DNA of 64,000 bases, taken from positions 4,192,001 through 4,256,000 of the forward strand of contig OZ251539.1 in NCBI GenBank assembly GCA_965243135.1, read 5' to 3'. Shown piece by piece: positions 171 through 32,219 of this stretch. Positions within the stretch are counted from its first letter, which is position 1; each line of letters starts with the position of its first letter. The position numbers and the translations under genes are program-made. Under the pieces are notes generated by a model. The model saw only the letters and a program-made list of their open reading frames with translations, was not told the DNA's origin and made no database searches. Source of the stretch: Alphaproteobacteria bacterium (lineage in GTDB: Bacteria; Pseudomonadota; Alphaproteobacteria; MPNO01; UBA830).

Positions 171-298
171 GAGGCGAACGCCCCCGCCGCCCCGGCGCCT
201 TGACTCACCGGCCAACCCATCCCCATACTGTCCTTGCACAGCCACACACAGCCACACACACCGACCGCCGGTATTGCGCTTCGGAGTCGATAGCGGGA
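171..298 (+). repeat. Dispersed non-coding element, copy A (promoter-bearing putative mobile-element end)
   Basis: 184-230 matches 17353-17399 at 46/47 nt, and 261-298 matches 17418-17455 at 35/38 nt. 171-190 is the exact reverse complement of 17334-17353. Internal 10-bp tandem duplication GCCACACACA x2 at 241-260. Confidence 0.9.
200..229 (+). promoter_or_regulatory. Putative sigma70 promoter inside copy A, pointing at NHLP precursor 1
   Basis: TTGACT (200-205), 18-nt spacer, CATACT (224-229). Identical in copy C. Confidence 0.55.
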
Positions 299-331
299 GT
301 CCTGAGCCTAAACATCGCAGGGAAGACGACC

Positions 332-727
332 ATGCATATTCACCAGGAAGGCATCTACCAATATGTTCGCCAGCAGGGCATCATTCTTCAGGGCCTCGCC
401 GACGCCTGCCATTCCGACGAGGATCGGCTGCGCGAGGTCGAGGAGCGTCCGAAGGACGTTCTGCGGGAACATGGAATCCATGTGTCGATGGATGTGGACG
501 TGAACATCGTCCTCAACACCCACGACACCTTCCATTTGGCCATGCCTCCCGACCCGAACCGGACGCTCCGGGACGAGGCGCTGATGGCGGTCGTCGGCGG
601 CTCGGCCCCAAACACGGCGAGCTCGGCGGCAACCATTGGGAGCTTTCCTTCCACCGCGAGTTCGCTCAGCTCCGTGAGCTCCGCGCGGGTTACTTCGTCT
701 CCGACCATGGAACCCTATAACCCTTGA
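332..727 (+). CDS. NHLP (nitrile hydratase-like leader) RiPP precursor peptide, 131 aa, Ser/Thr-rich core
   Basis: ATG at 332 after AGGGAAG. Leader has PKDVLREHG..VNIVLNTHDTFHLAMPPDPN..DEALMAVVGG (NHLP-type motifs plus double-Gly site). Core is SAPNTASSAATIGSFPSTASSLSSVSSARVTSSPTMEPYNP. Confidence 0.85.
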   Translation: MHIHQEGIYQYVRQQGIILQGLADACHSDEDRLREVEERPKDVLREHGIHVSMDVDVNIVLNTHDTFHLAMPPDPNRTLRDEALMAVVGGSAPNTASSAATIGSFPSTASSLSSVSSARVTSSPTMEPYNP

Positions 728-790
728 CCGCGAATCCTGCGATGATTGGTCGGCGCGCCGTCGTGCGAATCAGCTTCGGCGGGGGCAATC

Positions 791-807
791 TCGGAGTTGA
801 TAGCGGG
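791..807 (+). repeat. Short copy B of the element end motif (TCGGAGTTGATAGCGGG)
   Basis: 17/17 identical to 17438-17454 and 16/17 to 281-297. Lies 63 nt downstream of the NHLP1 stop. Confidence 0.8.
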
Positions 808-840
808 TAGGGTTTGAGTTTGCAGACGGACTTCTTGCCG

Positions 841-1050
841 AAATAGCGCGCGCACCGTTTGTCCGTCGTCGCGCTGAACATCAATGCCCTTCCGCTCGTA
901 ACCCGGCCCTTCGACCTGGTCCAAAGCGCCTCGCTAGTCTTCTGGAATCCTGAACAGGACGCCGAAAGAGCGTTTGCCGGGAACCTCCCTCAAGGTCGCC
1001 TTTCCCGAACCGTCCTTGCTCGGTTTGCTGAAGTCCAGGGCATAGCCGTC
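841..1050 (-). pseudogene. Gamma-glutamylcyclotransferase (GGCT/AIG2-like) remnant
   Basis: One frame reads GYALDFSKPSKDGSGKATL..GVLFRIPED*RGALDQVEGPGYERKGIDVQRDDGQTVRALF. In-frame TAG at 934-936; no recognisable N-terminal YFAYGS motif. Confidence 0.55.
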
Positions 1051-1337
1051 CGCGGAGCGTCGGCCGGGCGTCGAACCGACAAAAAATGGTACAGCGCAAG
1101 CGGTTCGGTTTTTTGCTCGGTGCGGCCGTTTGGCCGTTTGCCGCAGGGCGGCGGCGGCGTACGGCCGGCCGTGGGGTGGAATCCGCGAAAATCGCGACCT
1201 TGGCGCGGAGAATTCGCAGTTTTCCGCACCCGAGGAAAAAAATTCCGCACCCCGGAAAGCTGCCCGCATTTCAAGACGTTACGAACAGCGCACGCGGCTC
1301 CAATTCGGACTTCCCCGGAACGCTGCGAAAAGGCTGT

Positions 1338-1427
1338 TGGCGGAGAGTGAGGGATTCGAACCCTCGGTACGCGTGCGCGTACAACGGTTTTCGAGACCGC
1401 CCCGTTCGACCGCTCCGGCAACTCTCC
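1338..1427 (-). tRNA. tRNA-Ser (anticodon CGA)
   Basis: Reverse complement GGAGAGTTGCCGGAGCGGTCGAACGGGGCGGTCTCGAAAACCG..GGTTCGAATCCCTCACTCTCCGCCA: acceptor stem, long variable arm, T-loop GTTCGAATC, encoded CCA. Confidence 0.97.
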
Positions 1428-1498
1428 GCCCGAGAGAGTACCTCAGCGCGCCGAACCGCACAACTGGGCCTCGTCGCCCGGAAGAGCGGCACCGGGCG

Positions 1499-1526
1499 TT
1501 GACAATGCCGCCGCGCCTCTTATATT
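1499..1526 (+). promoter_or_regulatory. Putative sigma70 promoter of rplU-rpmA
   Basis: TTGACA (1499-1504), 16-nt spacer, TATATT (1521-1526), 60 nt upstream of rplU. Confidence 0.55.
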
Positions 1527-1586
1527 CCGCCACCGCATCCGGATGAACGGCCTGCCGGAATGCGGAGATGAGGAGCCGGAACGGAC

Positions 1587-2180
1587 ATGTACGCAGTGGT
1601 CAGGACAGGCGGCAAGCAGTACCGCGTCGCCAAAGACGACGTGATCGTCGTGGAAAAGCTCGATGCCGCTCCCGGCGAGGTGATTGAGCTGGGCAGCGTT
1701 CTCGCGATGAACGACGGAGTTCGGCTGACCCTCGGCGAACCTCTGGTCGACGGCGCAAGCGTGACCGCGACGGTCCTGGAACAGAAAAGAGACGACAAGA
1801 TCGTCGTTTTCAAGAAAAAGCGCCGCAAGAACTATCGCCGGACGCGCGGTCACCGCCAGTCCGTTACCGTTCTTCGCATCGGGGAAATCCGTGCGGAATC
1901 CGGAATCCCGGCTCCTGAAATCGCGGCCCCGGCGGAAGAGGATCCCGTCGCGGAGCCGGAACGTCCGGAGGCCGCGGCCGAGGTAGAAGAAAATCCCGTC
2001 GCGGAGCCGGAACGTCCGGAGGCCGCGGCCGAGGTAGAAGAAAATCCCGTCGCGGAGCCGGAACGTCCGGAGGCCGCGGCCGAGGTAGAAGAAAATCCCG
2101 CAGCGGAACCGGAACGTCCGGAGGCCGCGAACGAAACGGATGACGGCGGAGAGGCTTCCGCCGTCCGCCAGGGAGACTGA
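1587..2180 (+). CDS. rplU: 50S ribosomal protein L21 with acidic repetitive C-terminal extension
   Basis: MYAVVRTGGKQYRV..KIVVFKKKRRKNYRRTRGHRQ; GAGGAG SD; followed by rpmA. Confidence 0.97.
   Translation: MYAVVRTGGKQYRVAKDDVIVVEKLDAAPGEVIELGSVLAMNDGVRLTLGEPLVDGASVTATVLEQKRDDKIVVFKKKRRKNYRRTRGHRQSVTVLRIGEIRAESGIPAPEIAAPAEEDPVAEPERPEAAAEVEENPVAEPERPEAAAEVEENPVAEPERPEAAAEVEENPAAEPERPEAANETDDGGEASAVRQGD
1942..2129 (+). repeat. 51-bp coding tandem repeat (3 perfect copies plus 1 partial) in rplU
   Basis: Unit starts ATCCCG at 1942, 1993, 2044 and 2095; encodes PVAEPERPEAAAEVEEN. Confidence 0.95.
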
Positions 2181-2183
2181 AGC

Positions 2184-2441
2184 ATGGCTCACAAGAAGGC
2201 GGGCGGCAGTTCCCGCAACGGCAGGGATTCCGCCGGACGGCGCCTCGGCGTCAAGAAATTCGGCGGCGAAGCCGTTCTCCCCGGCAACATCATCGTCCGG
2301 CAGCGCGGCACCAAATGGCATCCCGGCGACAACGTCGGCATCGGCAGGGACCATACGATCTTCGCCAGAACCGAAGGCCGGGTGGCGTTCCGCCGCCGGA
2401 CCGGAGGCCGGGTGTACGTTTCGGTCGAACCGGCCGGCTGA
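2184..2441 (+). CDS. rpmA: 50S ribosomal protein L27
   Basis: [34 protein letters not shown]. Confidence 0.98.
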
Positions 2442-4641
<2,200 letters not shown>

Positions 4642-4645
<4 letters not shown>

Positions 4646-5901
4646 GCGGAGACGACCTGGCTGCCGCCATGGAGCGGCTCGGACGCGCGGCCCGCGGGGC
4701 GGCCGGAGAACTCGGCCGGGCGCCCTCCGACCGGAAGAACGCCGCCTTGCGCGGCGCGGCGGCGGCTTTGCGAACGCGCAAGGACGATCTGCTCGCCGCC
4801 AACGAAAAGGATCTGGCGGCGGCGGAGGGCGTCTCGCCGGCGCTGCGCGACCGGCTCCGCCTCGACGAAGGGCGGATCGAAGCCATGGCCAAAGGCCTGG
4901 AGGAAATCTCGCGGCTCGACGATCCCGTGGGCGACGTCATGGCGTCCTGGAATCGGCCCAACGGCCTCGCGATCTCCCGGGTCCGGGTTCCGCTCGGCGT
5001 CATCGGACTCATCTACGAATCGCGCCCGAACGTCACCGCCGACGCGGGCGGGTTGTGCCTCAAGTCGGGAAACGCGGCGATATTGCGCGGCGGCTCCGAA
5101 AGCGGCCATTCGTCGCGGGCCATCTTCGAATGCCTGCAGGCGGGGCTGGCGGAAGCGGAACTTCCCGCGGGCGCGATCCAGATCGTGCCGACCGCGGACC
5201 GCGCGGCGGTCGGCCATCTGCTCGCCATGACCGACTACGTGGACATAATCGTGCCGCGCGGCGGAAAATCGCTCATCGAGCGCGTGCAGCGGGAGAGCCG
5301 CATTCCGGTGATCGCCCATCTGGAGGGCCTTTGCCATGTCTACGTCGACGGCGCGGCCGATCCGGAAATGGCGCGCAGGATCGTCTTCAACGCGAAGATG
5401 CGCCGCACGGGGATCTGCGGCGCGACGGAAACCCTTCTGGTGGATCGCGCGATCGCAAGCGAGGCGTTGCCGTCCATCATCGAAGATCTCGCCGATGCCG
5501 GATGCGAACTGCGCGGCGACGAAGCCACGCGGACGCTCGACCGGCGCGTGGGAAAGGCCGCCCCGGAGGACTGGCGGACCGAGTACCTCGACGCCATCCT
5601 GTCGATTCGGCAGGTCGAGGGGCTCGACGCCGCGATCGATCACATCAACGCCTACGGCTCTCATCACACGGACGCGATCGTGACCGCCGACGCCTCCCGG
5701 GCTCAGGCGTTTTTCGAGCGGGTCGATTCCGCGATCGTCCTGCACAACGCGTCCACCCAGTTCGCGGACGGCGGCGAGTTCGGCATGGGGGCGGAAATCG
5801 GCATCTCCACCGGCCGGCTGCATGCGCGAGGTCCGGTCGGCGTCGAGCAGTTGACCACCTTCAAATACGTCGTTCGCGGCGCGGGACAGGTTCGGCCCTG
5901 A
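4642..5901 (+). CDS. proA: Gamma-glutamyl phosphate reductase
   Basis: [45 protein letters not shown]. Confidence 0.97.
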
Positions 5902-6530
5902 CCGTCCTCGCGAAGAGCCGCCGAGGCCACGCGGCGACCGGGCTTCGCATCGGCATTTTGGGCGGTTCGTTCAACCCCGCCCACGATGGCCATATGCATA
6001 TCAGCCTGCTGGCGCTGAAGCTGCTTCGCCTCGACGAGGTGTGGTGGATGGTCTCGCCCCAGAACCCGCTGAAGCCGTCGCTGGGAATGGCGTCGTTCGA
6101 CGAACGGATGGCGGGCGCGACCGCGCTGGCCCGTCATCCCTGCATCCGGGTGACGGACATCGAACGCCGCTTCGGAACGACCTACACCGCCGACACCCTG
6201 GTCATTCTCAAACGGTGCTTCCCCAAGACCAGCTTCGTCTGGATCATGGGCGCCGACAATCTCGCGCAGATCTCGAAATGGCAAAACTGGACGCGCGTAT
6301 TCAATCTTCTGCCCATTGCGGTTTTCGACAGGGCTCCCTATTCTTTCGGAGCGCTCGCGGGGAAGGCGGCGAAGGCGTTCTTCCGGTTCAAGAAGAAGCG
6401 GAACGACGCCTGCAGCATCGCCGACATGAAGCCGCCGGCCTGGATGTTCTTCCACACGAGGCTGCATCCCGGGTCGGCGACGGAAATCCGCTCACGCAGA
6501 CGGGCGCGAAACGGGAAGCACGCGAACTGA
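5898..6530 (+). CDS. nadD: Nicotinate-nucleotide adenylyltransferase (start uncertain, probably CTG)
   Basis: [15 protein letters not shown] (HxGH), [16 protein letters not shown]; conserved proA-nadD-rsfS order. Confidence 0.9.
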
Positions 6531-6904
6531 ACAAGCTAGCGAACGACGGCGGAACGGCGGAAGCCCTGCTCGCCGGGATCAGCGAAACCCTTGAAGCGCA
6601 CAAGGCTCAGGACGTGGTGGTCATCGACCTCTCCGGAAAATCGGACATCGCCGACTACATGGTCGTCGCCAGCGGCGGATCCCGCCGCCAGGTCACGACG
6701 ATGGCGGAAAAGCTCGCCGAAACCGTGAAGGCGCACGGCGTCTCGGGCATGCGGCCCGAAGGGCTCGCGCAGGCCGACTGGGTGCTGCTCGACGCCGGCG
6801 ACGTCATCGTCCATCTGTTCCGTCCGGAGGTCCGCGCCTTCTACAACCTGGAAAAGATGTGGAGTGCCGAATTGCCGGGCGACCGGGATTCGGCGACCGC
6901 CTGA
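6527..6904 (+). CDS. rsfS: Ribosome silencing factor (start uncertain, probably CTG)
   Basis: KAQDVVVIDL..IADYMVVASG..DWVLLDAGDVIVHLF..RAFYNLEKMW. Confidence 0.92.
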   Translation: MNKLANDGGTAEALLAGISETLEAHKAQDVVVIDLSGKSDIADYMVVASGGSRRQVTTMAEKLAETVKAHGVSGMRPEGLAQADWVLLDAGDVIVHLFRPEVRAFYNLEKMWSAELPGDRDSATA

Positions 6905-6906
6905 CC

Positions 6907-7392
6907 GTGGACATCGCCATCTGCGCGGTGGGCCGCCTCGGACCGGGGCCCGAGCGGGAGCTGATCGAACGGTTCTCGAAACGGCTTCGCTGGAATTTCG
7001 AAATCCGCGAGGTGGCCGAGCGCCGGAAACTGCCGCCCCCGGCGCTTCGGGAACGGGAATGCGAACTTCTCCGGGCGGCTTGTCCGCCGGGATCCCTGCG
7101 CGTCGCGCTCGATCGAACGGGAAGCGATCTCGACAGCGAGGGACTGGCGGCGCGGCTGGAAGCGTGGCGCGACGCCGGGCGCGGAGTCGCCTTCGTCATC
7201 GGCGGCGCGGAAGGGCTGACGGCGAGCCTCCGGGAGAGCGCGGACTTCGTGCTCGGCTTCGGGACGGCCACCTGGCCGCACATGCTGGTCCGGGTCATGC
7301 TGACGGAGCAGCTCTACCGGGCTCAGGAAATCCTCGCCGGCAACCCCTATCACCGGGGTTCGCGGCGCAACGAACGAAAGGCGGCGGCATGA
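6907..7392 (+). CDS. rlmH: 23S rRNA pseudouridine(1915) N3-methyltransferase
   Basis: IAICAVGRL, FVIGGAEG, TWPHMLVRVMLTEQLYRA..NPYHR; GTG start. Confidence 0.93.
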   Translation: MDIAICAVGRLGPGPERELIERFSKRLRWNFEIREVAERRKLPPPALRERECELLRAACPPGSLRVALDRTGSDLDSEGLAARLEAWRDAGRGVAFVIGGAEGLTASLRESADFVLGFGTATWPHMLVRVMLTEQLYRAQEILAGNPYHRGSRRNERKAAA

Positions 7393-8951
7393 CCGGCGAA
7401 CGACCGCGACATCCGGTCGTGCTCTGCGTGCTGGACGGATGGGGGCACCGGGAAGACCGGACGGACAACGCGATCGTCCAAGCCAACGCACCGGATTTCT
7501 GGGAGTTGCGTGAAACCTGCCCGCAGGCGCTGATCGAGGCGTCCGGCGTTGACGTCGGGCTTCCGGCGGGCCAGATGGGCAACTCGGAAGTGGGACACCT
7601 CAACCTCGGCGCGGGCCGCGTCGTGGACCAGGACATTCGCCGGATAGACGAGGCGATCGAGACCGGCGCCCTGGCCGCGAAGCTCGACGAATTCGCGGCG
7701 TCCCTCTCGGCGTCGAAGGGCGTTTGCCACCTGGCCGGGCTGCTGTCTCCCGGCGGCGTGCATTCCCATCAGGACCACATGGCGGAGATCGCCCGGATAC
7801 TCGACGAGCGGGGCGTGCAGGTTGCGGTGCACGGCTTTCTCGACGGCCGCGATTCTCCGCCCTTGAGCGCCGTCGAATTCGTTCGGACGTTCGAAAGGCG
7901 CATCGCGGGCGGGCGGGCGCGGATCGCCACGCTGTGCGGCCGGTTCTACGCGATGGACCGGGACCGGCGCTGGGACCGGGTCGCGCGCGCATACGACTTG
8001 CTGGTTTCCGGGGCGGGAGACCGGGCTTCCGGCGCGGTCGCCGCAATTCGCGAAAGCTATGCCCGCGACGTTACCGACGAGTTCATGCTCCCGGCCGTCG
8101 TTGGCGACTACGCGGGAATGCGCGACGGCGACGGGCTGTTGATGGCGAACTTCAGGGCCGACCGGGCGCGCGAGATCCTCGGGGCGCTGCTCGACCCCGG
8201 GTTCGACGGATTCGAGCGCAAGCGGACCGCGAAGTTCGCCGCGGCGCTGGGACTGACCGGATATTCCGCCGCGCTCGACGCGCTGATGGGATCGATGTTT
8301 CCGCCGCTGCCGCTGGACAACATTCTCGGAGGCGTCATCTCGAAAGCGGGCCTGCGGCAGCTGCGCATCGCCGAAACCGAGAAGTACGCCCACGTCACCT
8401 TCTTCTTCAACGGCGGCGAAGAGGCGCCGTTCGCGGGAGAGGACCGGGCGCTGATCCCGTCGCCCCGCGTCGCCACGTACGACCAGCGTCCGGAAATGTC
8501 GGCCTTCGAAGTGACCGACCGGCTGGTCGCGGAGATCGCGTCCGACCGCTACGGCTTCGTGCTCGTGAACTACGCCAATCCTGACATGGTGGGGCACACG
8601 GGAATGCTGGAGCCGGCCGCCGCCGCGATACGCGCCGTCGACGCCTGCCTCGGGCGCGTCGCCGAGGCGGTGCGCCGGGCGGGCGGCGTTTTGTTGATCA
8701 CTGCGGACCACGGGAACGCGGAATCGATGCGGGACGCCGAGACCGGCGCGCCGCATACGTCCCATACGCTCAACAAGGTCCCGGCGGTTCTCGTTAACGC
8801 GCCGGAAGGCTTGGCGCTGCGGGACGGCCGGCTCGCCGACGTCGCGCCGACGGTGCTCGATTTGATGGGAATCGAGGCGCCCGCCGAAATGACCGGCGTC
8901 TCGCTTCTGGCGCCGGACGCGGCTGCTTCGGCGGCGCGAAACACGGCCTGA
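7389..8951 (+). CDS. gpmI: 2,3-bisphosphoglycerate-independent phosphoglycerate mutase
   Basis: LCVLDGWG, GQMGNSEVGHLN, AETEKYAHVTFFFNGG, NPDMVGHTG, TADHGN. Confidence 0.96.
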   Translation: MTGERPRHPVVLCVLDGWGHREDRTDNAIVQANAPDFWELRETCPQALIEASGVDVGLPAGQMGNSEVGHLNLGAGRVVDQDIRRIDEAIETGALAAKLDEFAASLSASKGVCHLAGLLSPGGVHSHQDHMAEIARILDERGVQVAVHGFLDGRDSPPLSAVEFVRTFERRIAGGRARIATLCGRFYAMDRDRRWDRVARAYDLLVSGAGDRASGAVAAIRESYARDVTDEFMLPAVVGDYAGMRDGDGLLMANFRADRAREILGALLDPGFDGFERKRTAKFAAALGLTGYSAALDALMGSMFPPLPLDNILGGVISKAGLRQLRIAETEKYAHVTFFFNGGEEAPFAGEDRALIPSPRVATYDQRPEMSAFEVTDRLVAEIASDRYGFVLVNYANPDMVGHTGMLEPAAAAIRAVDACLGRVAEAVRRAGGVLLITADHGNAESMRDAETGAPHTSHTLNKVPAVLVNAPEGLALRDGRLADVAPTVLDLMGIEAPAEMTGVSLLAPDAAASAARNTA

Positions 8952-9266
8952 AGATCGCACGTTGCAGGGCGCCGCCGCGAAGCGAGCCGGGCGACGCCCG
9001 GCCGACGGCGCAGGGAAGGAGCCCGGCGAAGGATCCTCCGCCCGAAGCCTTCGGAAGAAAGCGCCGGCTCCGTCGACCGTCTCTTCCCGGCTCGCGCTGT
9101 CCGTCCCTGCCGCTTCCGATTTTCCGCGGAACGGGATAGACTTCGCCGTGCGGCCGGCCGCGCCGGGTTTTCGCAGCGGCGCGGCCCTCGACGGACGCGC
9201 AGGATTGGCGCGCGGGACCGGGAGAGATCCCGCGCCGCCCGACATGGCATGCGAGGTAAGCAAGCA

Positions 9267-10511
9267 ATGATCAATCGGTTGATGGCCATCGGCATCGTGG
9301 CGCTTCTGTTGTCGCATCCGGCGTCAGGTCAGCAGAACGGTTCCGAAACCTACCGGCAGCTCGAGCTGCTCGGGGACGTCTTCGAGCGCATCCGCGCGGA
9401 GCATGTCCAGGAAGTGTCGGACGAAGACCTCGTGGAAGCTGCCGTCAACGGCATGCTGGCCTCGCTCGATCCGCATTCGAGCTATCTGAGCCCGAAGGAC
9501 TTCCGCGACATGCAGGTCCACACGCGCGGCGAGTTTGGCGGCCTCGGCATCGAAGTCACGATGGAGAACGGCGTCGTCAAGGTGGTTTCCCCGATCGACG
9601 ACACTCCGGCGTTCCGCGCGGGATTGAAGCCGGGCGACCTGATCACGCATCTCGACGGCGAGCCGATACAGGGGCTCAGCCTCGCGGAAGCCGTCGAGAA
9701 GATGCGCGGTCCGGTCGACACCGATCTCGAACTGACGGTCCGGAGAGCGAACCGCGAACCGTTCAAGGTCAAGATCACGCGGGCGGTCATCAAGATCCGG
9801 TCGGTCCGCTCGCGCATGGAAGGCGAGGATATCGGCTACGTCAGGATTACCTCATTCAACGAACAGGCCGGCCCCGATCTCGAGAAGGCGGTCGCGAAAT
9901 TGAAGGAAGAAACCAAGCTTCGCGGACTGGTCTTGGACCTGCGCAACAATCCCGGCGGCTTGCTCGAGCAATCCGTCGCGGTCGCGGACGCCTTTCTGGA
10001 AAGCGGAGAAGTCGTTTCGACCCGCGCGCGCCGCCCCGACGACAGCCAGCGGTTCAACGCGAAGGAAGGAGACATCGCGAAGGGGATTCCGATCGTCGTT
10101 CTCGTGAACCGCGGGTCGGCGTCGGCCTCCGAGATCGTCGCGGGCGCGCTGCAGGATCACCAGCGGGCGCTCATCATGGGAACGAGAACCTTCGGCAAGG
10201 GATCGGTGCAGACCGTGATCCCGCTCGGTCCGCACGGCGCGATCCGGCTGACGACGGCGCACTACTATACGCCCGCGGGCAGATCGATCCAGGCGAAGGG
10301 CATCGATCCCGACATCCCCGTGGAACAGGCCAGACTGCAGACCGTGGAATCTTCCTCGCCGCGGGAGGAAGACCTTCGCGGACGGCTGGACAACCCCGGC
10401 GCCGAGGGAGGCACGGACGCGCCCGCCGCTCCCGAACGGCAGGACTACCAGCTGTCGCGAGCGCTCGATCTGCTGCGGGGGATTTCGCTGTTTTCCGGAG
10501 CGAACAACTGA
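9267..10511 (+). CDS. ctpA: S41 carboxy-terminal processing protease (CtpA/Prc-like)
   Basis: Signal peptide, PDZ (FGGLGIEV), DLRNNPGG, SASASEIVAGALQD, FGKGSVQ. Confidence 0.92.
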   Translation: MINRLMAIGIVALLLSHPASGQQNGSETYRQLELLGDVFERIRAEHVQEVSDEDLVEAAVNGMLASLDPHSSYLSPKDFRDMQVHTRGEFGGLGIEVTMENGVVKVVSPIDDTPAFRAGLKPGDLITHLDGEPIQGLSLAEAVEKMRGPVDTDLELTVRRANREPFKVKITRAVIKIRSVRSRMEGEDIGYVRITSFNEQAGPDLEKAVAKLKEETKLRGLVLDLRNNPGGLLEQSVAVADAFLESGEVVSTRARRPDDSQRFNAKEGDIAKGIPIVVLVNRGSASASEIVAGALQDHQRALIMGTRTFGKGSVQTVIPLGPHGAIRLTTAHYYTPAGRSIQAKGIDPDIPVEQARLQTVESSSPREEDLRGRLDNPGAEGGTDAPAAPERQDYQLSRALDLLRGISLFSGANN

Positions 10512-11029
10512 CCGGGGAGCGCGGCGCGCCGCCCGCCGGCTACCGTCCCTGCGTCGGCGTCATGCTGGTCGACCGGCTCGGGCGCGCGTTCACGGGCGAA
10601 CGGATCGACACGCCGGGAGCGTGGCAGATGCCACAGGGCGGCCTCGACGAAGGCGAGACCCCCGAGCGGGCGGCGGCGCGGGAGCTGCGGGAAGAGACGG
10701 GGATCGTTTCGGTCGAGTTGCTTGCGGTTTCCGGCGAATGGCGCGCCTACGACCTGCCTCCGCGGATCGCGTCCGGCATCTGGGGCGGCCGCTGGCGCGG
10801 CCAGGCCCAGATCTGGACGCTGTTTTCGTTCGTCGGCGACGAGGCGGAAATCGACCTCAGGACGAAGCATCCGGAGTTCCGGCGCTGGAAATGGACGCCG
10901 CCGGACAGGCTCCTCGACGAAATCGTAGACTTCAAGCGCGGCGTCTACGAAGCGGTGCTGGAGGAATTCGGATCCGTCGCGCAACGGCACCTCGACGCTC
11001 GAAGGCGCCGCGTGCCGCCGCAGGCTTAA
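10508..11029 (+). CDS. rppH: RNA pyrophosphohydrolase (Nudix), start probably CTG
   Basis: YRPCVGVML lies upstream of the first ATG (10562); Nudix box WQMPQGGLDEGE..AARELREETG; VDFKRGVY. Confidence 0.9.
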   Translation: MTGERGAPPAGYRPCVGVMLVDRLGRAFTGERIDTPGAWQMPQGGLDEGETPERAAARELREETGIVSVELLAVSGEWRAYDLPPRIASGIWGGRWRGQAQIWTLFSFVGDEAEIDLRTKHPEFRRWKWTPPDRLLDEIVDFKRGVYEAVLEEFGSVAQRHLDARRRRVPPQA

Positions 11030-11046
11030 CCGTATTTATGTAACCC
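11019..11046 (+). other. Possible dif-like (XerC/XerD) recombination site
   Basis: CGCAGGCTTAA-CCGTAT-TTATGTAACCC has an 11-6-11 layout with a XerD-like arm; the XerC arm is degenerate. Confidence 0.3.
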
Positions 11047-11093
11047 CTTATCGATTTCGAAGTGCGACACGTGCGGTCAGCAATCTCGGTCAC
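11044..11093 (-). repeat. Diverged inverted copy D of the element end
   Basis: 37/50 ungapped identity to the reverse complement of 17405-17454. Confidence 0.7.
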
Positions 11094-11106
11094 GGCGCAA
11101 GACCCT

Positions 11107-11283
11107 GTCGTCGCGGCCCCCGTTCGCCGCGAAATGCAACCGGATGGTCGGGTGCGCTTCTGGGGAACGGTTACGCGACCCGGCGAAAACGCTCCGCGCA
11201 TCCTCCGCGTGGTCACGCTGGCCGACGGAAAAACGGTCCATAACGCTTTCTTCGATCGGGGATTCAGGGAGGACGAACCATGA
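11107..11283 (+). pseudogene. 5'-truncated small putative toxin of the type paired with DUF2283
   Basis: VVAAPVRREMQPDGRVRFWG..RILRVVTLADGKTVHNAFFDRGF; ATGA overlap with DUF2283; N-terminus replaced by repeat copy D. Confidence 0.6.
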
Positions 11284-11495
11284 AGCTCCATTACTATCCC
11301 GAAACTGACAGCCTCTACATCGAGCTCGGACCCGCGCCAAGTGTGGAGACGCGCGAGGTTTCCGACGGGTTGAACGTCGATCTCGACGCCGCTGGCGGCG
11401 TGGTTGGCTTCGATATCGACCATGCGTCGCGGCGGCTCGATCTCTCCACGCTTGAGGCCGAGGCGCTGCCGCTCCGCTCGATCAGAGCGGGATGA
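11280..11495 (+). CDS. DUF2283 family protein (putative antitoxin)
   Basis: MKLHYYPETDSLYIEL..VDLDAAGGVVGFDIDHAS; GGAGG SD. Confidence 0.85.
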   Translation: MKLHYYPETDSLYIELGPAPSVETREVSDGLNVDLDAAGGVVGFDIDHASRRLDLSTLEAEALPLRSIRAG

Positions 11496-11531
11496 GCGCA
11501 ATGGCGGGCGAGACGACGGCCGCGGCTAGGC

Positions 11532-13898
11532 CTGCCTGTGCCCCATAAAGATTTTTCTGGACTCTGGCCAGCCGATTCGCTACGGTGCCCGGCATGGAGT
11601 TCCAGAATCAGGTTCGGCAAAGCCTCCGGAACGATTTTGCGCGCTTGCAAGGGGTGCTGGCGAACGGGGTTTTCACTCGCCGCAGCGAGGTCGCGGATCG
11701 CGTGTGCGAAGCATTCGGGTTTCGTGATGGGCTTGGCCGCCTGCAGCGAGCGGGCTGTCTGAAGGCGTTGGCGGAGTTTGAGGCGGCGGGACGGATTTCG
11801 CTGCCGTCGCCGACGCATTCCGGCGGTGGCGCGTGGCGCCCGCGACGTCTTGCGGAGCCGGTTCCTCCGCCGAAGAGCGTACCGGAGGAAGTCGGTGCGG
11901 TCGAGGGCCTGGAGTTGGTGCCGGTGACGGATGACGATCATCGCCTGGTATGGAACACGATGCTGGAGGAGGAGCATCCACGCGGCGCCGGTCCACTGGT
12001 GGGCTGTCAGTTACGGTATCTGGTGGGGTCGGCGCATGGCTGGCTGGGGGCTGTCGGGTTCGCGGCGTCGGCGCACAGGCTCGAATGCCGCGACCGTTGG
12101 ATAGGCTGGAGCGACGCAGGAAGGCGCGCTTGTTTGCACCGGGTCGTGTGCCTGTCGCGTTTTCTGGTCCGGCCCGGCGTCGAGTGCCGTAATCTTGCCT
12201 CGCATGTCTTGGGCGGCGTGGTCCGCAGGGTGGGAGACGATTTCGAGGCGCGCTACGGCTACCGCCCGTATTTGCTGGAGACCTTCGTAGACCGGCATGC
12301 GGGAACGAGCTTTCAGGCGTCCAACTGGCACCGAATTGGCGAGACAGCCGGCCGGGGGCGACAGGATCGGGAACATGCGGCAACGGAGACGCCGAAGGCT
12401 GTATATGTGTACGAATTGGATGCGGACTGGCAGGTGCGCATCCTGGAGCCGCGTGCGCCGCTTGCACCGTTGGAGGTCGGATCCGGTCTGGATCGGGAGA
12501 GTTGGGCGGAACAGGAGTTCGGCGGTGCGCCGCTGGGGGATGTGCGTCTGAGCGCGCGCCTGGTGACTTGTGCCCGATATCAGGCGGAAGCGCCGACGCA
12601 GGCGTTCACGTGCGCTGCGAGAGGGGGCCTTGATAAAGGCTTACTATCGCTTGATCGACAAGCCGGACAGTGATGCGGTGACGGTGGAGAACATCCTGCA
12701 GCCGCATCGGCGGCAGACGCTGCGGCGGATGCAGGGGGAGAAGACGGTGCTGTGCGTGCAGGACGGCAGCACGCTGAACTTCGCGAAGCGGGGGAAGACC
12801 GAGGGTTTGGGAATCATCGGTCGGAACCAGACCGGCGCCGGCACCCGAGGCCTGAACCTGCACGCCACGGTCAACACGGAGGGGCTGCCGCTGGGGGTTC
12901 TGCGGGCGGCGTTCGATGCGCCGCAGCCGAGCGCGGAGAGGGACAAGCCCCGCGAGAAGAAGAAGTCGTACCGTTGGATTCAGGGCCTTCAGGACAGCGC
13001 CGAGGCTGCTTCTGCACTCGATGGCGTGCAGGTGGTCGGCGTCATGGACCGGGAGGCGGACTTCGTCGACCTGTTCGTTGAGCGGCGCGAGCGGGCGCCG
13101 GGAGTGGAACTTCTGGTGCGGGCGAAGACGAACCGGGTTCTCGGCAAGGACGACACCGACAAGCTGTTCGACAAGGTGCGGAAAAGCCCGGTGCAGGGCA
13201 AGCGCGTCATCGAGGTCAAACGTCTGAGCGCACGCATAAAGGCAAGCAAGCAGGCCGCGAGGGCCGTGCGGCCGGAGCGCCAGGCCACGGTCGAACTGCG
13301 CTACCTCAAGGTCGAGTTGCCGGCGAAGGGCAAGAATCCCGTCGAGGCGACGATTGTGCATGTCCGCGAGAAAGCTCCCCCGCCGGACGCCGGACGGCTG
13401 GAATGGTTCCTGCTGACGACGCTGCCGGTCGAGAGCGCCGAGGACGCCGAACGCATCCTGACTTGGTATGGCCTGCGCTGGCGTATCGAAGATTATTTCA
13501 GGGTCCTGAAGTCCGGCTGCCGAGGACCTTGAGAATCGGACGGCCGAACGTCTTCAGCGTGCCGCCGCCATCAACATCGTCATCGCCTGGCGCATCCACC
13601 TGATGACCCGTCTCGGACGGGAACTGCCCGATCTGCCGCCTGAGATCCTGTTCTCGGACGTCGAACTCCGGGTGCTGGCGCTCCTCGCCAAATCTTGGCG
13701 CATGGCACCGCCGAAAAGCCTCGGAGACGCTGTCTTCCTGGTCGCCCGCCTCGGAGGGTACTTCAAGCGCAAGCGTGATCCGCCAGGCGCGGAAGTGATG
13801 TGGAACGGCTACGCCCAACTCGCCGCCAAGGCGCATTTCCGGGAACTTGAGGATGAACACGGATGTTAGTTCAGCAAAACTTTATGGGGCACAGGCAG
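11532..13898 (+). mobile_element. IS4-family (IS50/Tn5-like) insertion sequence, 2367 bp
   Basis: Perfect 19-bp terminal inverted repeats CTGCCTGTGCCCCATAAAG (11532-11550 and 13880-13898); 8-bp target duplication GGCTAGGC (11524-11531 and 13899-13906). Confidence 0.93.
11594..13869 (+). pseudogene. DUF4338 (DruA/Mom-like) domain fused to an IS4 transposase; two frameshifts (about 12630 and 13525)
   Basis: N-terminal part: GCQLRYLV..RDRWIGW..SRFLV..NLASHVL..LLETFVD..GTSFQASNW. In frame with WAEQEFGGAPLGDVRL (Tn5-type DNA-binding). Then QDGS, DREAD, WFLLTT and YGLRWRIEDYFRVLKSGC (YREK motif). Confidence 0.85.
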
Positions 13899-14086
13899 GG
13901 CTAGGCGGCGGCGCTTGCCGTTCGGAGGTCTCGGGATTGCGGCGCTGAGGGCTGCCCCGTAACGCCCTGTCTTCACACCGCGACGCCCGAACGTGGAACG
14001 GTTATGTCGGTGCATGATAGCGGTGCGAGGCCGGGTGAACCATGACCAAAGTTACATGCTACGGGGTGAGCAGGCGCCGATCATGA

Positions 14087-17000
14087 GCGTTTGTTTCGTT
14101 GGCCCTTGACGCGCGCAACGCCGCCGCGCACTTCGCCGGCGAAATGGAGGCGCACGCCGCGCTGCGCCATCTGGACGCCATGCGCGAACTCCTGGCCGCC
14201 ATCGGCGCTGCTGGCCAGGAGACTGCGCTCGCAGCCCTTTATGACGAGCAATTTGCGGCAGACAGCGGGCCGGGGGCGGGCGCTAGCGACCTTAGGCTTG
14301 AGGAACCGCCGCCGGAACGCCCGCGCCCCTGGCGCGAGGTTTGCGAACCGCATCCCGATGTTCTGGCGGCGCGCTTCTCCGACGCCGAGTTCGCGGCCAA
14401 TCTGGCGTTGGTTGATCGGGGCCAGGGCGAGGAAGAATACGTCGACCCGGCGGTGTTCTTCCGCATCACCCATATGACCGAAGGGCTGCGACTGGTACTG
14501 CGGGCAGTCATCAAGCGGCTCGGCGGACGCGGCGGCGAGCCGGTGATCAGGCTTCAGACCAATTTCGGCGGCGGCAAGACCCACACCATGCTGGCGCTCC
14601 AGCGCGGTCGAGGCCGGCTACCGACCGAAGACTCTCGAAGGCTTGACTCCGATCTTCGCCGAGGCAGGCGTCGAAACCCTTCCCCGAATCCGGCGCGCGG
14701 TGTTCGTCGGCACCGACAAGGGTGCAGCAGAGGCAATGCACGTGGAGGATGGCCGGGAGGTCCGAACTCTGTGGGGGTACATCGCATGGCGGCTCGGTGG
14801 CTGGAAGGCAGTCGACAGCATCGCCGCGTCGGAAGACGCGGGGACAAATCCGGGATTGAAAAAGCTGATCCCTATTCTTCGCGAGGCTGTGCCGTGCCTG
14901 ATCCTGATGGACGAGGTAGTGGCGTTCGCACGCCAGTTGCGAGGCGTGCCTTACGACGCCTTCCACGCCTTCGTCCAGTCGCTGACCCGAGACCGCGGCC
15001 GCAGTCGAAGGTGCCGTGGTGGTCGGTTCGCTGCCGGAATCGGGCACCGAGGTCGGTGACGAGCAGGGTGAGACGGCGTTGCGGCGGCTGGAAAAGATTT
15101 TCGGGCGCCTGCAGTCGGCTTGGACGCCAGCGACCGATGTCGAGACCTTCGAGATCGTCCGGCGCCGCCTGTTCCAGCCGCTCGACGAAGCGGGCGGGCA
15201 AGCGCGCGACGAGACCGTTTGGGCGTTCCGCAAACTCTATCGCGACAACCGTGCGGACTTTCCGCCGAAAGCGCATGAAGAGGTCTACGAAGACCGGATG
15301 CGCCGCGCCTATCCACTGCATCCAGAAGTGCTACGGCGGTTTTCCGGCGATTGGTCAGTGCTGGAGAAGTTCCAGCGCACGTGCGGCGCTCTCAAGATCA
15401 TGGCGGGTGCCGTCTATGCGCTGTGGCAGGGCGAAAGCACCGCGCCCCTGATCACGCCGGCGCTGCTGCCGCTTCGCGATGCGCGCGTGCGGACCGCCCT
15501 CTTGGAACCGCTGGATCGCGCCTATGGGCCGATCCTGCAATCGGAAGTGGATGGCGATCAAGCGCTCACGGCGCGGATCGAGGCCCGGCGGCCTCGGATC
15601 GGCCGCGCAAAAGCGGCGACGGGCGCGGCGCGGGCGGTGTTTTTCGCCACTGCACCCCACGCAGGCGCCGCAAGCAACGCGCGCGGCGGCTTGACCGGCG
15701 CGGATCTGTGGCTCGCCTGCGCTCGTCCCGGCGACCAAATCGCGGTCTTCGGGGAGGCGCTGCAGGAAATCGCGTCAAGCGCGGCCTATCTCTACCGCGA
15801 TGGCGACCGCTTCTGGTTCTCGCCCCGCCCGACCCTGAACAAACTCGCCGCCGACCGCGCCCGCGACATGGACGCCGAGCGCGTCGACCGGCGCATCGTG
15901 GAAGTATTGCGCGAGGAAGCGCGCGACCGCGGCGGGTTCCACCGCGTCCACGCGGCTCCGGACGATCCATCCGACATTGAGGATCGGCGCGACGCTGCAG
16001 CGCTTGTGATCCTGCCTCCCTCGGCGGCGCACGACAACGACGGACCACCGCCATCCGCGGCGGAAACGCTTGCGCGAGACATCGTGGAGCGGCGCCGGAC
16101 CGGACAACGGAGCTATCGCAACGCGCTGGCGTTCGTGGCCGCCGACGCAGCGAACTTGGATGCGGCCCGCGAGAACGTGCGGCGGAAACTCGCTTGGCGG
16201 TCGATCTTGGACGATTCCGACCTTGAGAAGAACCTAACTCTCGCGCAGGCGAACGACGCCAAAGGACAGTTCGAGCGCGCGGGCGAGGCGCGCCGCCGCA
16301 GCGTCCGTGGTGCTTGGGTGCACCCCCTCTGTCCGGCGCCGGTCGAGGGCGCGAACGGCAAGCCATCTTCTGGTTTCGCCTTGCAGGCCGCACGGCTGGT
16401 GAACCGGGATGGTGCCAAAAGCGTGGCGCATGCAGCATGGGACAAGGCGACCGGGGACGGCACAGCGCTCGGCGAGATCGGCCCCGAAAACCTGACCCGC
16501 TGTCTCGAACCGCTGTGGCCGGAGAGCCAGCCGCATGCTCTGGTCGAGGACCTCCGCGAGTGGTTCGCTTCCTATGTTTACCTGCTGCGCTTGCGCGACG
16601 AGGCGGTTCTCGACGGCGCGCTGCGCCGCCTCGCCGAAGACTTCGCTCGGCCCTTCGCGCTCGCGGCCGGATTCGACGAGGCGACTGGTGTCTATGTCGA
16701 TGTCGTCGACGGAAAGGCGCTCCCGTTGGGAAACCTAGGCTCCCGTCTTCTGGTGCGTCGGGAGGCCATACCGGCGCCCCCTGAAGACCCTCGTCCGCCG
16801 CCGCCCGGCGGCAAGGCGTCGGACGATGCCAAGAGCGGCGGCGACCCCGACAAGCCGCAACCACCGCCCGACACGCCGCGGCCGAAACGGTTTTTCGCAT
16901 CGCTGAAGCTCGATCCCGAGCGTGCGGGCCGCGATGTAGCGCGGATCATGGACGGCCTGCTGGTCGAATTGACCCGCACGCCGGGGGCCAAAATCGAACT

Positions 17001-17124
17001 GACGCTGGAGATCGCAGGAACGGCGAGCGAAGTCGGCTACCCGCCGGATGTTGTGGACACCGTCACCGCCAACGCACGCGACCTCAAGTTGGATCAAGGC
17101 GACCTGGGGTTCGAGAAGAATTGA
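14087..17124 (+). pseudogene. Truncated and frameshifted HEPN (Swt1-like) plus DUF499 AAA+ ATPase
   Basis: RNAAAH (Rx4H), PWREVCEPHPDV, EFAANL, LQTNFGGGKTH (Walker A), ILMDE (Walker B), AYPLHPE, FQRT. Split over three frames with breaks near 14605 and 14990. Confidence 0.8.
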
Positions 17125-17333
17125 CGGCGAAGGTTCCGGTGCGTCGCCGCCGCGCCGACAGTGCGGTCGCAAAGGACGGGGTGGGCGCTTTGTCGAGCGC
17201 AGCCGGCAAGGCTGTCGCCGGGCTGCAGTGGCCTGCGCTCTGCGCGTCGGCCCGGCCACGCAGGTTCGCGGCCCAGGACAGGACAAACGGCGGTCGTCGG
17301 CGCGGCCACGGGGCAGAGGGGGATTTTTTCGCT

Positions 17334-17455
17334 GCGGCGGGGGCGTTCGCCTCCGCCGCCCCGGCTCCTTGACTCACCGGCCAACCCATCCCCATACTGC
17401 CTTGGTGACAGGGATTGCCGACCGTCGGTATTGCACTTCGGAGTTGATAGCGGGA
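17334..17455 (+). repeat. Dispersed non-coding element, copy C, with 5' hairpin
   Basis: Near-identical to copy A. Hairpin GCGGCGGGGGC-GTTC-GCCTCCGCCGC at 17334-17359. Ends TCGGAGTTGATAGCGGG. Confidence 0.9.
17369..17398 (+). promoter_or_regulatory. Putative sigma70 promoter inside copy C
   Basis: TTGACT, 18-nt spacer, CATACT; same as 200-229. Confidence 0.5.
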
Positions 17456-17883
17456 AGGGATTAGAGAATTAGGGGGATTTGCTGCCCTAATTTCCTAGCG
17501 ATTTCGCTCATCACTCCGCGGGAGCTTCGAGCACGAATCCCGCGATCAAGAACCGGACGGCCCCCGAGTCGTCGGGGCCGAAGCGCACGTAACTTGCAGG
17601 TTCCCCGCCAACTCTCACATTGGGGGCTGGCACGCCCAGGCGGTAAAGAAGTCGGTCGCTGCTCTACCCCAACTCCCGCGCCGTCCGCCGAAGCGCTGCG
17701 CGAGGGGGCCGCCATTCCCTCTCGCGCGCTCAGTTCGGCGTTGAAGAGCGACCGGACCAAACGGTTAACGACGCCGTCGCCGCTGGCTCCTCTCGTCCAG
17801 GAATACGCGTTGTCGAACGACCCCGCGTCAGCGGGCGATTTCGCTCCTCGGGTAATTCGGATTCGATCCCGAAGCCCCCGAAC

Positions 17884-17918
17884 CGGCCGGCCCGGCACCG
17901 TCAGGGGCGGGCCGGCCG
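17884..17918 (-). terminator. GC-rich hairpin just downstream of NHLP precursor 2
   Basis: 11-bp perfect stem CGGCCGGCCCG / CGGGCCGGCCG, 16 nt after the stop codon; no strong U-tract. Confidence 0.35.
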
Positions 17919-17934
17919 CGACGGGAGGCGTCGA

Positions 17935-18330
17935 TCAGATGGAGCCGCTTCCCCCTCGTGAGGTCCATACGTCGAGGCAGCTTGCGCCGCATCCGCAAGA
18001 AGGTGTCCCACATGCGGCGCTCCCCCCGACGCACTTGCCGCCGCCGGCGACCGCATTGAGCACCTCGTCCCCCACGCTGGCGTTGAAATCGGGGGGAAGG
18101 ATGAAATGGAAAACCTCGTCAGTGTCCTCGACGATGCGCACTTCCGTATCGGGCACCACCTGGATGCTGTTCTCGGAGAGGGCGGCGACCGGGTCCGAGT
18201 TGAGGTTCGAGCGAAAATCCGGATCCTTGCGGTACTCATCCGCGATGGAAGCGAGCTGGCGCACGCTCTCTTGAAGTCCCTCGGGCGACACCGGAATGTG
18301 AAGCACCGTCGTCAAGTTGATAGGGGGCAT
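17935..18330 (-). CDS. NHLP RiPP precursor peptide, 131 aa, Cys-rich core
   Basis: GAGGA SD. Leader DPDFRSNLNSDPVAALSE..EVRIVEDTDEVFHFILPP..DEVLNAVAGG. Core GKCVGGSAACGTPSCGCGASCLDVWTSRGGSGSI. Confidence 0.9.
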   Translation of the reverse strand: MPPINLTTVLHIPVSPEGLQESVRQLASIADEYRKDPDFRSNLNSDPVAALSENSIQVVPDTEVRIVEDTDEVFHFILPPDFNASVGDEVLNAVAGGGKCVGGSAACGTPSCGCGASCLDVWTSRGGSGSI

Positions 18331-18957
18331 GTTTCCATCCTCAATTCGCTGTTTCGATCACGCAAGGCGACACGCAAATGCTTGCATGCATCCAATACCC
18401 TAACCGGGAAGGTTGGGAAAACCCTAATTTCAGTAATTTTCGCCAAGGCGGCCGCATTTCCCGAAGGTACGCCGAAAAGGCGAAGTCGCCAAAAATTTTT
18501 CTCGAACGCCATATTTTTCACGGGATTAGAGCCGTAGGGGAAATTGCCGACATATCGCCGAGAACACCTTGGAACCGCTTCTCGAGACTCCGTTGGAATC
18601 CGAGGCCGCTTGAGTCCATGTCCGATAGCCTCGAAGAAGCGCTCGCCGAGTTCGCTTCGACGCGCGACTTCAGGGACAAGGAGTTCTCGGCGATTTCGCG
18701 ACGGACGCGAAACTTTCCGCCACGGCGCCGAGGCGCCTGGAGGCTGTCTCGGCCGCAGGGGCGGCGAATCGCCCGGCTGCACCGGGTCCCGCGACCGAAT
18801 GTCGCGGCGCAGGCCCGAGAACTGCGGAACCGGGCGGCCCGCCGCCGCGGAGCGCGGACAAGACTTGCGACTCGAGGGAAAGCCGCAGGACCGAGGCCGC
18901 GCCCCTTTCGACGGCTGCCGTTCCGCCGGAAAGTCGGCGAAGGCGGGTCGGGCCGCG

Positions 18958-28807: not shown

Positions 28808-29202
28808 TTCGGGTCGGGGGGCGAAGCGCGGCGGCGATGCAGCGAGCGGAGAACGGGGGGCCGGCGGTCGCGTCGTCAGGCCGAACCGCGTTTCCCGGAA
28901 GGCCCGCGCCGCGGAAGCGCCCCGCCGCGGCGCGGGGGCCGCCTTCCGGCACCGTCGTTCGCAGGCGTTCGGTCGGCATGTCCCGGCGGTTCCGAGGCGA
29001 AGCGGTCGAAAGAGTATAGCACGACGCCCCCGTCATTGCGGGCAGGCCGCCCGCGCCGAGAGGAGGCCGGCGGCGCGGGACGGGCTCCCTCGCGGGCGGC
29101 GCGTCCCGCCGTCACGGGGTCCGAACCGGAGGCGGTCCGGGCGTATCCCGCAAGCGGGCGACCGCGACAGCTTCGCCGAAGAGCGGTCGCATGGCCCGAT
29201 GG

Positions 29203-32160: not shown

Positions 32161-32219
32161 CGGATACACTCTAATTGGCCGTCGGGAACGGTCAATCCGA
32201 GGTCAGGCGGGGCAGAGGC

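Follow-up and report, generated by a model that had tools for sequence, protein, structure and literature searches.

The window that we analysed is a 64-kb stretch of a 6.1-Mb alphaproteobacterial genome. Its left part holds two genes for NHLP precursor peptides, together with two full and two partial copies of a short repeat, all four copies lying inside 18 kb. The features are these:

171-298, + strand: element copy A, made up of half of a G+C-rich palindrome, a promoter-like block, a variable middle and a 3′ block
198-230, + strand: promoter-like block of copy A, 33 nt, with TTGACT-N18-CATACT
261-298, + strand: 3′ block of copy A, 38 nt, with the terminal 17-mer at 281-297
332-727, + strand: NHLP precursor gene 1 (P0001, 131 aa), leader ending in Gly-Gly, Ser/Thr-rich core
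791-812, + strand: solo right end, the exact 17-mer at 791-807 followed by five bases of which four are as in copy C
11044-11093, - strand: degenerate inverted copy of the 3′ part of the element, 50 nt, 74% match to 17405-17454
between 11044 and 17455: gene pair of the 83-aa family and DUF2283
between 11044 and 17455: IS4/Tn5-type IS with a transposase and its own 32-nt ends
between 11044 and 17455: split DUF499 gene
17334-17455, + strand: element copy C, made up of a complete palindrome with a 12-bp stem, a promoter-like block and a 3′ block with the 17-mer
17367-17399, + strand: promoter-like block of copy C, with TTGACT-N18-CATACT
17418-17455, + strand: 3′ block of copy C, with the 17-mer at 17438-17454
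17457-17489, + strand: block F, first copy, directly past copy C
17935-18330, - strand: NHLP precursor gene 2 (P0002, 131 aa), leader ending in Gly-Gly, Cys/Gly-rich core
18522-18554, + strand: block F, second copy, sharing 25 of 33 bases with the first, a 19-nt pattern (16 bases specified) being exact in both

Both precursors match TIGR03793, P0001 at E 3.1e-10 (39.8 bits, model positions 7-77 of 77) and P0002 at E 5.8e-12 (45.3 bits, model positions 9-77 of 77), with both scores under the curated cut-off of 50.9 bits, and PF02979 matches the two weakly (E 6e-4 and 2e-3). Furthermore, a profile of the P0001 family finds an NHLP leader chimera (PDB 8tb1_A, E 4.6e-6) as well as nitrile hydratase alpha chains (E 3e-3 to 8e-3), which relates the leaders to the C-terminal part of the nitrile hydratase alpha subunit. 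Nitrile hydratases carry a metal-binding cysteine cluster; this cluster is lost here, the leader region holding on inspection one cysteine in P0001 and none in P0002. The AlphaFold model of P0001, with a mean pLDDT of 55, was too poor for a fold search.

The two proteins are 34.8% identical across 112 aa and, as the initial annotation had proposed, combine related leaders with mutually unrelated cores. The glycines that close both leaders, G89 and G90, are invariant in the alignments of both subfamilies and are followed by the Ser/Thr-rich or Cys/Gly-rich tail. We found at least four NHLP paralogues in the source genome, forming two conserved subfamilies, and in the alignments each subfamily retains its core from one related genome to another. 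Since the cores are kept among orthologues, the precursor subfamilies do not form a hypervariable library, and the combinatorial precursor library suggested earlier is not supported. Each of the two genes is best read as an ordinary, unclustered member of its conserved NHLP subfamily. A tblastn search of plasmids with P0001 and P0002 gave one distant NHLP match, from Tistrella.

No YcaO, LanM, radical-SAM or peptidase-ABC family was found among the ORFs scanned in the window, in agreement with the initial annotation; the search for a maturase covered 64 kb of the 6.1-Mb genome, and the window begins 170 nt left of copy A. In that left flank (2-166), a 55-aa reading on the minus strand matches a 64-aa ORF of a close relative, besides three long proteins of repetitive sequence. 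For a tRNA-Ser island no tRNA-derived att repeat was found, nor was any compositional island found. Judging from their family, genes 1 and 2 would be matured in trans by enzymes encoded elsewhere, and a peptidase-domain ABC exporter would remove the leader at Gly-Gly.

Scattered NHLP paralogues distant from their maturases are already known, as Haft 2010 (PMC2887384) describes large paralogous NHLP families whose genes lie apart from those for modification and export. The genes studied here resemble the NHLP/Nif11 families, as far as these are described there (PMC2887384), in the nitrile-hydratase-like leader, the Gly-Gly, the Cys/Ser/Thr-rich core, the presence of paralogues and the remote genes. 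They differ in scoring under the TIGR03793 cut-off and in having cores that are conserved, not hypervariable. Prochlorosin precursor genes are scattered in the genome and served by one ProcM, and their leader is of the Nif11 type. Scattered precursors without an adjacent maturase are common to both cases; here, however, the leader is NHLP and not Nif11, the paralogues detected number four and fall into two conserved subfamilies, and no LanM was seen in the window.

The repeat itself is a non-coding element of ~125 nt, copy C possibly reaching ~168 nt. Copies A and C, described earlier as near-identical, share 89 of 96 positions (92.7%) over three ungapped blocks. The match is 93% between 173-230 and 17342-17399, 96% over the 52 nt of 179-230 and 17348-17399, and 92% over the 38 nt of 261-298 and 17418-17455, while the middle differs, copy A having a 10-nt tandem repeat (x2.4, 237-260). 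Each copy lies less than 500 nt from an NHLP gene, as had been noted, at 34 nt (gene 1) and 480 nt (gene 2).

The 17-mer occurs exactly three times in the window (+ strand, at 281, 791 and 17438), and none of 100 shuffles contained any match, which upholds the further end copy at 791-807; this solo 17-mer begins 64 nt past the stop codon of gene 1. The inverted end copy that had been placed at 11044-11093 has more than 3 mismatches from the 17-mer, but its relation to the element stands: a profile of A and C recovers it at E = 3e-4, and 30 of 42 bases match, whereas the best of 200 simulated sequences reaches 28. The four copies have a common right end, nested left ends and unrelated flanks, and this pattern supports the reading of the repeat as a discrete unit with one right end.

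Searching more widely, we found no plasmid match for copy A by blastn. A scan of genome contigs excluding the source genome gave 82 stretches with the 17-mer, with a single match each and from unrelated taxa, where ~140 chance matches are expected by a uniform-composition estimate; none of the 82 extends past 22 nt, and none carries an NHLP gene at E <= 1e-3. Rfam, both at the gathering threshold and at E <= 1, gave no match beyond the tRNA and a single miRNA hit due to chance. The 3′ block was also considered as coding sequence and rejected, as in no frame do the differences between A and C favour synonymous changes, and stop codons stand close behind.

The three features listed between 11044 and 17455 occupy the 6.4 kb between the inverted ends. 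An ORF at 11062-11283 is identical to P0084 at 52 of 58 positions over residues 22-79, and its first ~21 residues have ~5 matches to the family consensus (a hand count on the alignment); the inverted copy lies on this aberrant 5′ stretch of a small gene that is well conserved elsewhere along its length. The converse origin, in which the 83-aa gene family would have supplied the 3′ block out of its 5′ end, is not supported, the family profile missing the reverse translations of A and C.

The 33-nt block with TTGACT-N18-CATACT is exact in both A and C and was matched by no shuffle. It contains the sole promoter-like site found in each region, which is a match to consensus only, and in both copies this sigma-70-like site faces the right end of the element, as claimed. 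Because the whole 18-nt spacer is identical, and because the element is 92.7% identical in copies whose neighbouring precursors share 34.8%, recent copying fits better than selection on the hexamers alone.

The initial annotation had the element expressing the precursors, and this holds at most for one of the two. Copy A, which has the same orientation as gene 1, ends 34 nt ahead of it and, to judge from its sequence and position, may supply or modify the promoter of gene 1. Copy C (+) and gene 2 (-) are convergent, 480 nt apart, and the region upstream of gene 2 is without the element. Aimed as it is at the 3′ end of gene 2, copy C is unable to drive its expression, and it would yield at most a short RNA, or transcription that enters gene 2 in antisense. 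The ~480 nt past copy C contain no convincing gene, and tblastn for an NHLP pseudogene past copy C or past the copy at 791 gave genes 1 and 2 alone (E < 0.01). Upstream of P0032, an 80%-identical orthologue of gene 1 with an N-terminal extension, the translation matches the window in the 8 codons before the ATG only; with no likeness to the element there, the element looks lineage-specific at the gene 1 locus.

Both precursor genes are bracketed by direct repeats from the right-end region, gene 1 by the 17-mer (281-297 and 791-807) and gene 2 by the copies of block F (17457-17489 and 18522-18554). Of the three independent repeat loci, two have an NHLP gene no more than 500 nt away, a proximity with P = 0.005 over the whole window and, in a post hoc calculation on non-genic DNA only, P ~0.07. 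The bracketing, together with the whole-window value, hints at a link closer than mere neighbourhood.

We then consider whether the element is mobile. Terminal inverted repeats are absent, as the ends of A, C and C with block F are equalled in score by 717, 796 and 978 of 1000 shuffles, respectively. No target duplication was seen for copy A; for copy C a 7-nt word flanks 17334-17501, which is one of five boundary choices tried, and no duplication is common to A and C. No cognate transposase or recombinase for the element was found in the window, where the transposase genes all belong to separate IS elements with their own ends; the intact transposase or recombinase envisaged beside a copy is therefore not in the window. 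Furthermore, the ~93% identity of the element copies against the ~35% of the precursors indicates that the spread of the element was independent of the genes and that it did not carry them, contrary to the earlier suggestion that it disperses precursor genes. Nothing shows the repeat moving, or expressing NHLP genes as a system. On its sequence features we regard it as a small dispersed promoter-like repeat that is possibly mobile.

Collectively, these results lead us to a tentative explanation, held with slightly less than even confidence, in which ordinary NHLP genes lie beside a separate promoter-like repeat that spread recently and independently. The repeat would have spread, independently of the NHLP genes, through some copy or recombination process, behaving like a non-autonomous mobile element without the classical structure of a MITE. 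Copy A would have landed 34 nt upstream of gene 1, whose promoter it would now supply or modify, and fragments keeping the right end would have been left at 791 and, inverted, at 11044.

Many prokaryotic MITEs are described as having sigma-70-like promoters (PMC10969869). [quoted passage not shown] It differs from them in being without terminal inverted repeats and without a consistent target duplication.

Under another hypothesis, which we consider possible although doubtful, nothing has moved. Copies A and C, each a promoter with a block recognised by protein or RNA, would be paralogous regulatory regions of an older NHLP array, or their likeness would be kept by gene conversion; copy C would be a promoter left behind after the loss of its gene, and the 17-mer would serve a small regulon as operator or UTR signal. 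The stretch past copy C that is empty of a convincing gene fits this hypothesis, as does the recurrence of the 17-mer after gene 1, where the next gene of the array would start. Back-to-back NHLP genes also appear to exist in relatives, to judge from three P0001-like pairs with common longest contigs of 1,740, 816 and 9,797 bp. However, no NHLP remnant was found by tblastn at either place, the spacer that is identical in A and C is a non-functional part of the promoter, and the 17-mer region is not retained upstream of P0032. Moreover, the fourth copy stands at a disrupted, unrelated gene, and RNA folding of the four copies revealed no stable or conserved fold (z-scores of -1.3 to +1.4, no better than shuffles).

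Less probable again, and in our view unlikely, is the system originally proposed, in which a promoter-bearing non-autonomous mobile end captures, disperses and expresses NHLP genes that are served by a distant maturase. Its model is ISEcp1 of the IS1380 family, which has an outward promoter and uses alternative right ends. The succession of an end, gene 1 and a direct second end (281-297, 332-727, 791-807) resembles a one-ended transposition unit of this kind, the promoter-like site is directed out through the end, an inverted end copy is present at 11044-11093, and copy A is apparently absent upstream of the gene 1 orthologue; the whole-window proximity value also favours it. On the other side, copy C is convergent with gene 2, which has no element upstream, the gap between element and gene identities means that the genes were not recently carried, the orthologue cores are conserved, and the proximity weakens to P = 0.07 on non-genic DNA. 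The 6.4 kb between the inverted ends contain unrelated genes and no matching transposase. The parallel with ISEcp1 is further limited in that no IS1380-type transposase is found here, the element measures 125-170 nt, and the inverted ‘left end’ is a 74% match.

Integrons combine a Pc-attI platform with gene cassettes, the IntI tyrosine recombinase being encoded beside the promoter and attachment site. A platform of this type, with a promoter and an attachment-like right end at which single promoterless NHLP cassettes are inserted or excised and the site is duplicated on both sides, is very improbable. In its favour, gene 1 stands alone between 17-mers (298-790), gene 2 stands alone between F copies (17490-18521), and copy C, which would be a nearly empty platform, looks like copy A without an inserted gene. 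Against it, the two loci do not share their duplicated segment (17-mer against F), and gene 2 runs opposite to the promoter; past the 17-mer, the flanks of the 791 copy and of copy C show no significant likeness (160 of 1000 shuffles). Among the ORFs scanned in the window we found no integrase or recombinase family, nor was an attC-like element established, and there are two instances only.

On present evidence the NHLP genes are ordinary, and the repeat is a further example of a short, promoter-like repeat of intergenic DNA. The practical value of the finding lies in annotation, as the element marks what is, from its sequence, a likely promoter of gene 1 and a possible source of antisense transcription into gene 2. 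If the integron-like arrangement were true, it would mean shuffling of RiPP precursors without an adjacent maturase. If the repeat is mobile and preferentially linked to precursors, it would offer a mechanism for the scattering of RiPP precursor paralogues, and for their expression away from the maturases, in the NHLP and Nif11 families.

The finding of a short non-coding repeat near two NHLP precursor genes in this window is real and non-random. The initial annotation described a near-identical non-coding element close to each gene, and we found that its copies A and C agree at 89 of 96 positions in three ungapped blocks, including 96% over 52 nt (179-230 against 17348-17399) and 92% over 38 nt (261-298 against 17418-17455).

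171-298, +, element copy A
17334-17455, +, element copy C
332-727, +, gene 1, NHLP precursor P0001, 131 aa, TIGR03793 match
17935-18330, -, gene 2, NHLP precursor P0002, 131 aa, TIGR03793 match

In the inter-block region the first ~13 nt are alignable, after which A carries a tandem repeat where C has 6 nt. This 10-nt repeat (2.4 copies, 237-260) lies mid copy A, just past the predicted transcription start, and accounts for the length difference. A G+C-rich palindrome is complete at the start of C and half retained in A, as an inverted 20-nt match. The TTGACT-N18-CATACT reported earlier sits in a 33-nt block that shows no difference between A and C and is the only promoter-like site found by consensus scan in 1-1500 and in 17000-18600; it is a putative promoter, by consensus match only. 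That the whole 18-nt spacer is identical is better explained by recent copying than by selection confined to the promoter hexamers.

We also examined the further end copies that had been proposed. The terminal 17-mer of the right end occurs exactly three times, always on the + strand (281, 791 and 17438), while shuffles contain no match, and the solo right end at 791, which carries the exact 17-mer (791-807), is identical to C at 21 of 22 positions. The inverted end at 11044-11093 (-) is degenerate: it was missed by a 17-mer search allowing 3 mismatches, and it proved real in three tests. It forms the longest inverted repeat in 10900-18600 (50 nt, 74%, against 17405-17454), it is recovered by a profile built from A and C only (E = 3e-4), which yields no other convincing hit across the 64 kb, and it matches 30 of 42 positions against a maximum of 28 in 200 simulated sequences. 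The four copies have a common right end and nested left ends. Two of the three loci (A with the 791 copy, the inverted copy, and C) lie within 500 nt of an NHLP gene, with P = 0.005 when loci may fall anywhere and P = 0.07 for non-genic positions only, the non-genic fraction being roughly 18% from an approximate gene map; both P values are post hoc.

Orientation is the key point absent from the initial annotation. On the + strand, like gene 1, copy A stops 34 nt short of that gene's ATG and thus occupies the promoter and 5′ UTR position. Because C lies on the + strand and gene 2 on the - strand, the promoter-like site of C is directed towards the 3′ terminus of gene 2, 480 nt away, and nothing resembling the element occurs in the true upstream region (18331-18520) of that gene; expression of gene 2 from C is accordingly contradicted. 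The 791 copy is directed head-on at a tRNA gene and the inverted copy at the end of a NUDIX gene; just one of the four copies is in a position to drive a gene.

Against the NHLP leader model TIGR03793, the two precursors align over near-full model length (P0001, E 3.1e-10, 39.8 bits; P0002, E 5.8e-12, 45.3 bits), both scores being under the curated cut-off of 50.9 bits, and each also matches nitrile hydratase alpha weakly. A P0001-family profile retrieves 8tb1_A, an NHLP leader of solved structure (E 4.6e-6), together with nitrile hydratase alpha chains. In agreement with the earlier description of related leaders and very different cores, the proteins share 34.8% identity over 112 residues and an invariant Gly-Gly closes both leaders, while the cores, Ser/Thr-rich in P0001 and Cys/Gly-rich in P0002, are unrelated.

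At E <= 1e-3 we found 48 relatives of P0001 (among 123 candidates) and 15 of P0002 (among 49 candidates). The source contig (6,103,318 bp) holds paralogues of both, P0048 (62% identical to P0001) and P0003 (83% identical to P0002). Two further contigs (3,944,238 and 3,666,911 bp) each have several representatives of the two subfamilies. Across these genomes, alignments show the core to be conserved inside each subfamily; these are therefore orthologous peptide families, and not a hypervariable library; a combinatorial library had been suggested. P0001 and P0002 are ordinary NHLP genes. In the P0002-family alignment most relatives, the in-genome paralogue P0003 among them, have a Gly-aromatic-Gly-Gly stretch ahead of the conserved Cys-rich core; this stretch is missing from P0002 itself. 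Three pairs of P0001-like homologues match in the length of their longest contig (816 to 9,797 bp); if each pair shares one contig, we infer that NHLP arrays exist elsewhere. Haft et al. 2010 (PMC2887384) already reported that NHLP and Nif11 precursors form large paralogous families, whose genes can be remote from those for modification and export. A family scan of the window's ORFs bears out the earlier remark that no maturase gene is recognisable in the 64 kb: no YcaO, LanM/LanB, radical-SAM or peptidase-ABC family was found in any scanned ORF.

We asked whether the element moved, and whether it did so with the genes. It did not travel with them: just 7 of 96 positions separate the element copies, against about 35% shared residues in the precursors, which places the element's duplication long after the genes diverged. 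The flanks of the 791 copy and C are at shuffle level (160/1000) past the 17-mer and about 5 nt, and the common right boundary with unrelated flanks of the four copies is the first of three signs of a discrete inserted unit. The second comes from P0032, an 80% identical P0001 orthologue predicted with a 27-residue N-terminal extension. Over the 8 codons that precede the ATG in the window (308-331), the extension agrees with the in-frame translation at 6; farther upstream, opposite the element's 3′ block, only 2 of 18 positions match by manual count, which suggests that the element is absent there. This comparison covers one sequence at the protein level, where homology could be masked by an indel. 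The third sign is in ORF 11062-11283, a member of a widespread 83-aa family to which 324 of 331 candidate proteins belong at E <= 1e-3. The family HMM scores this ORF at E 3.9e-36, and from residue 22 onward it is identical to the protein P0084 at 52 of 58 positions. Its first ~21 residues meet the family consensus at about 5 positions only, with the usual start missing, and the inverted copy occupies exactly this aberrant stretch.

Several signs speak against a classical mobile element. Its ends are not inverted repeats of each other (out of 1000 shuffles, 717 to 978 do equally well), A and C have no target duplication in common, and no transposase belongs to the element. The one candidate duplication, a 7-nt word around 17334-17501, came from trying five boundary choices. 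On the same side, no match was found in plasmids or Rfam, and the predicted RNA fold is unremarkable. A 17-mer scan of a genome-contig collection, source genome not included, gave 82 single matches in unrelated organisms and no true relative.

Each NHLP gene is the sole gene inside a short direct-repeat pair from the element's right-end region. Gene 1 is bracketed by the 17-mer (281-297 and 791-807), and gene 2 by block F (17457-17489 and 18522-18554; 25/33 identical), which starts 2 nt past C and contains a 19-nt pattern exact in both copies and absent from shuffles. This bracketing could reflect recombination at the element end, or a mere graveyard of fragments in long non-coding DNA. An exact 12-nt direct repeat (17498-17509 and 17835-17846) also lies in the non-coding stretch between C and gene 2, and 7 nt of it abut the left edge of C too (17327-17333).

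The window has 66.7% G+C. Gene 1 has the window edge on one side and a tRNA-Ser gene (1338-1427, -) on the other, and beyond these come housekeeping genes (obg, proB, proA, nadD, phosphoglycerate mutase, C-terminal processing peptidase and NUDIX hydrolase), the last of which ends at 11029. The DNA from 11044 to 18957 looks disturbed.

11062-11283 and 11280-11495, small gene pair: 83-aa family member without Pfam match or usual start, and a DUF2283 gene overlapping its stop
11523-13907, complete-looking IS of IS4/Tn5 type, 32-nt inverted ends (91% complementary)
14099-17124, DUF499 anti-phage-associated gene (NF042962), in two overlapping frames (14099-15451 and 15016-17124)

The IS transposase is split into three ORFs (11585-12673, with a DruA-like (PF14236) N-terminal region; 12570-13532; 13603-13869). 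The DUF499 gene is probably split by a frameshift, and no partner genes of its system lie beside it; it is followed by copy C, 480 nt, gene 2 and 630 nt, with no convincing gene in either gap. Elsewhere, ORF 1443-2354 (-), for which no family was found, contains a 51-nt tandem repeat (3.8 copies, 96% matches, 1935-2129) that translates into a 17-residue protein repeat. Several long ORFs lack any family match. Three long ORFs (1091, 289 and 325 aa, 29191-34530) resemble coding sequence in composition and match neither Pfam nor NCBIfam. An ISKra4-like transposase ORF (35845-37149), matched weakly at 71 bits where the cut-off is 205, is surrounded by 28-nt inverted repeats (35673-37358, 82% complementary), and a HigB-like toxin and HTH antitoxin pair (42415-42989) lies amid central-metabolism genes.

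The system-level proposal, in which a mobile promoter would scatter a library of precursors and express it, finds no support at gene 2 and stands unproven at gene 1. Short promoter-bearing repeats are a known kind, with the Correia element and others treated in PMC10969869. Most likely, the repeat is small, dispersed and promoter-like, and perhaps mobile: one copy precedes an ordinary NHLP gene, and a second NHLP gene has another copy convergent to it in a decayed, IS-bearing stretch.
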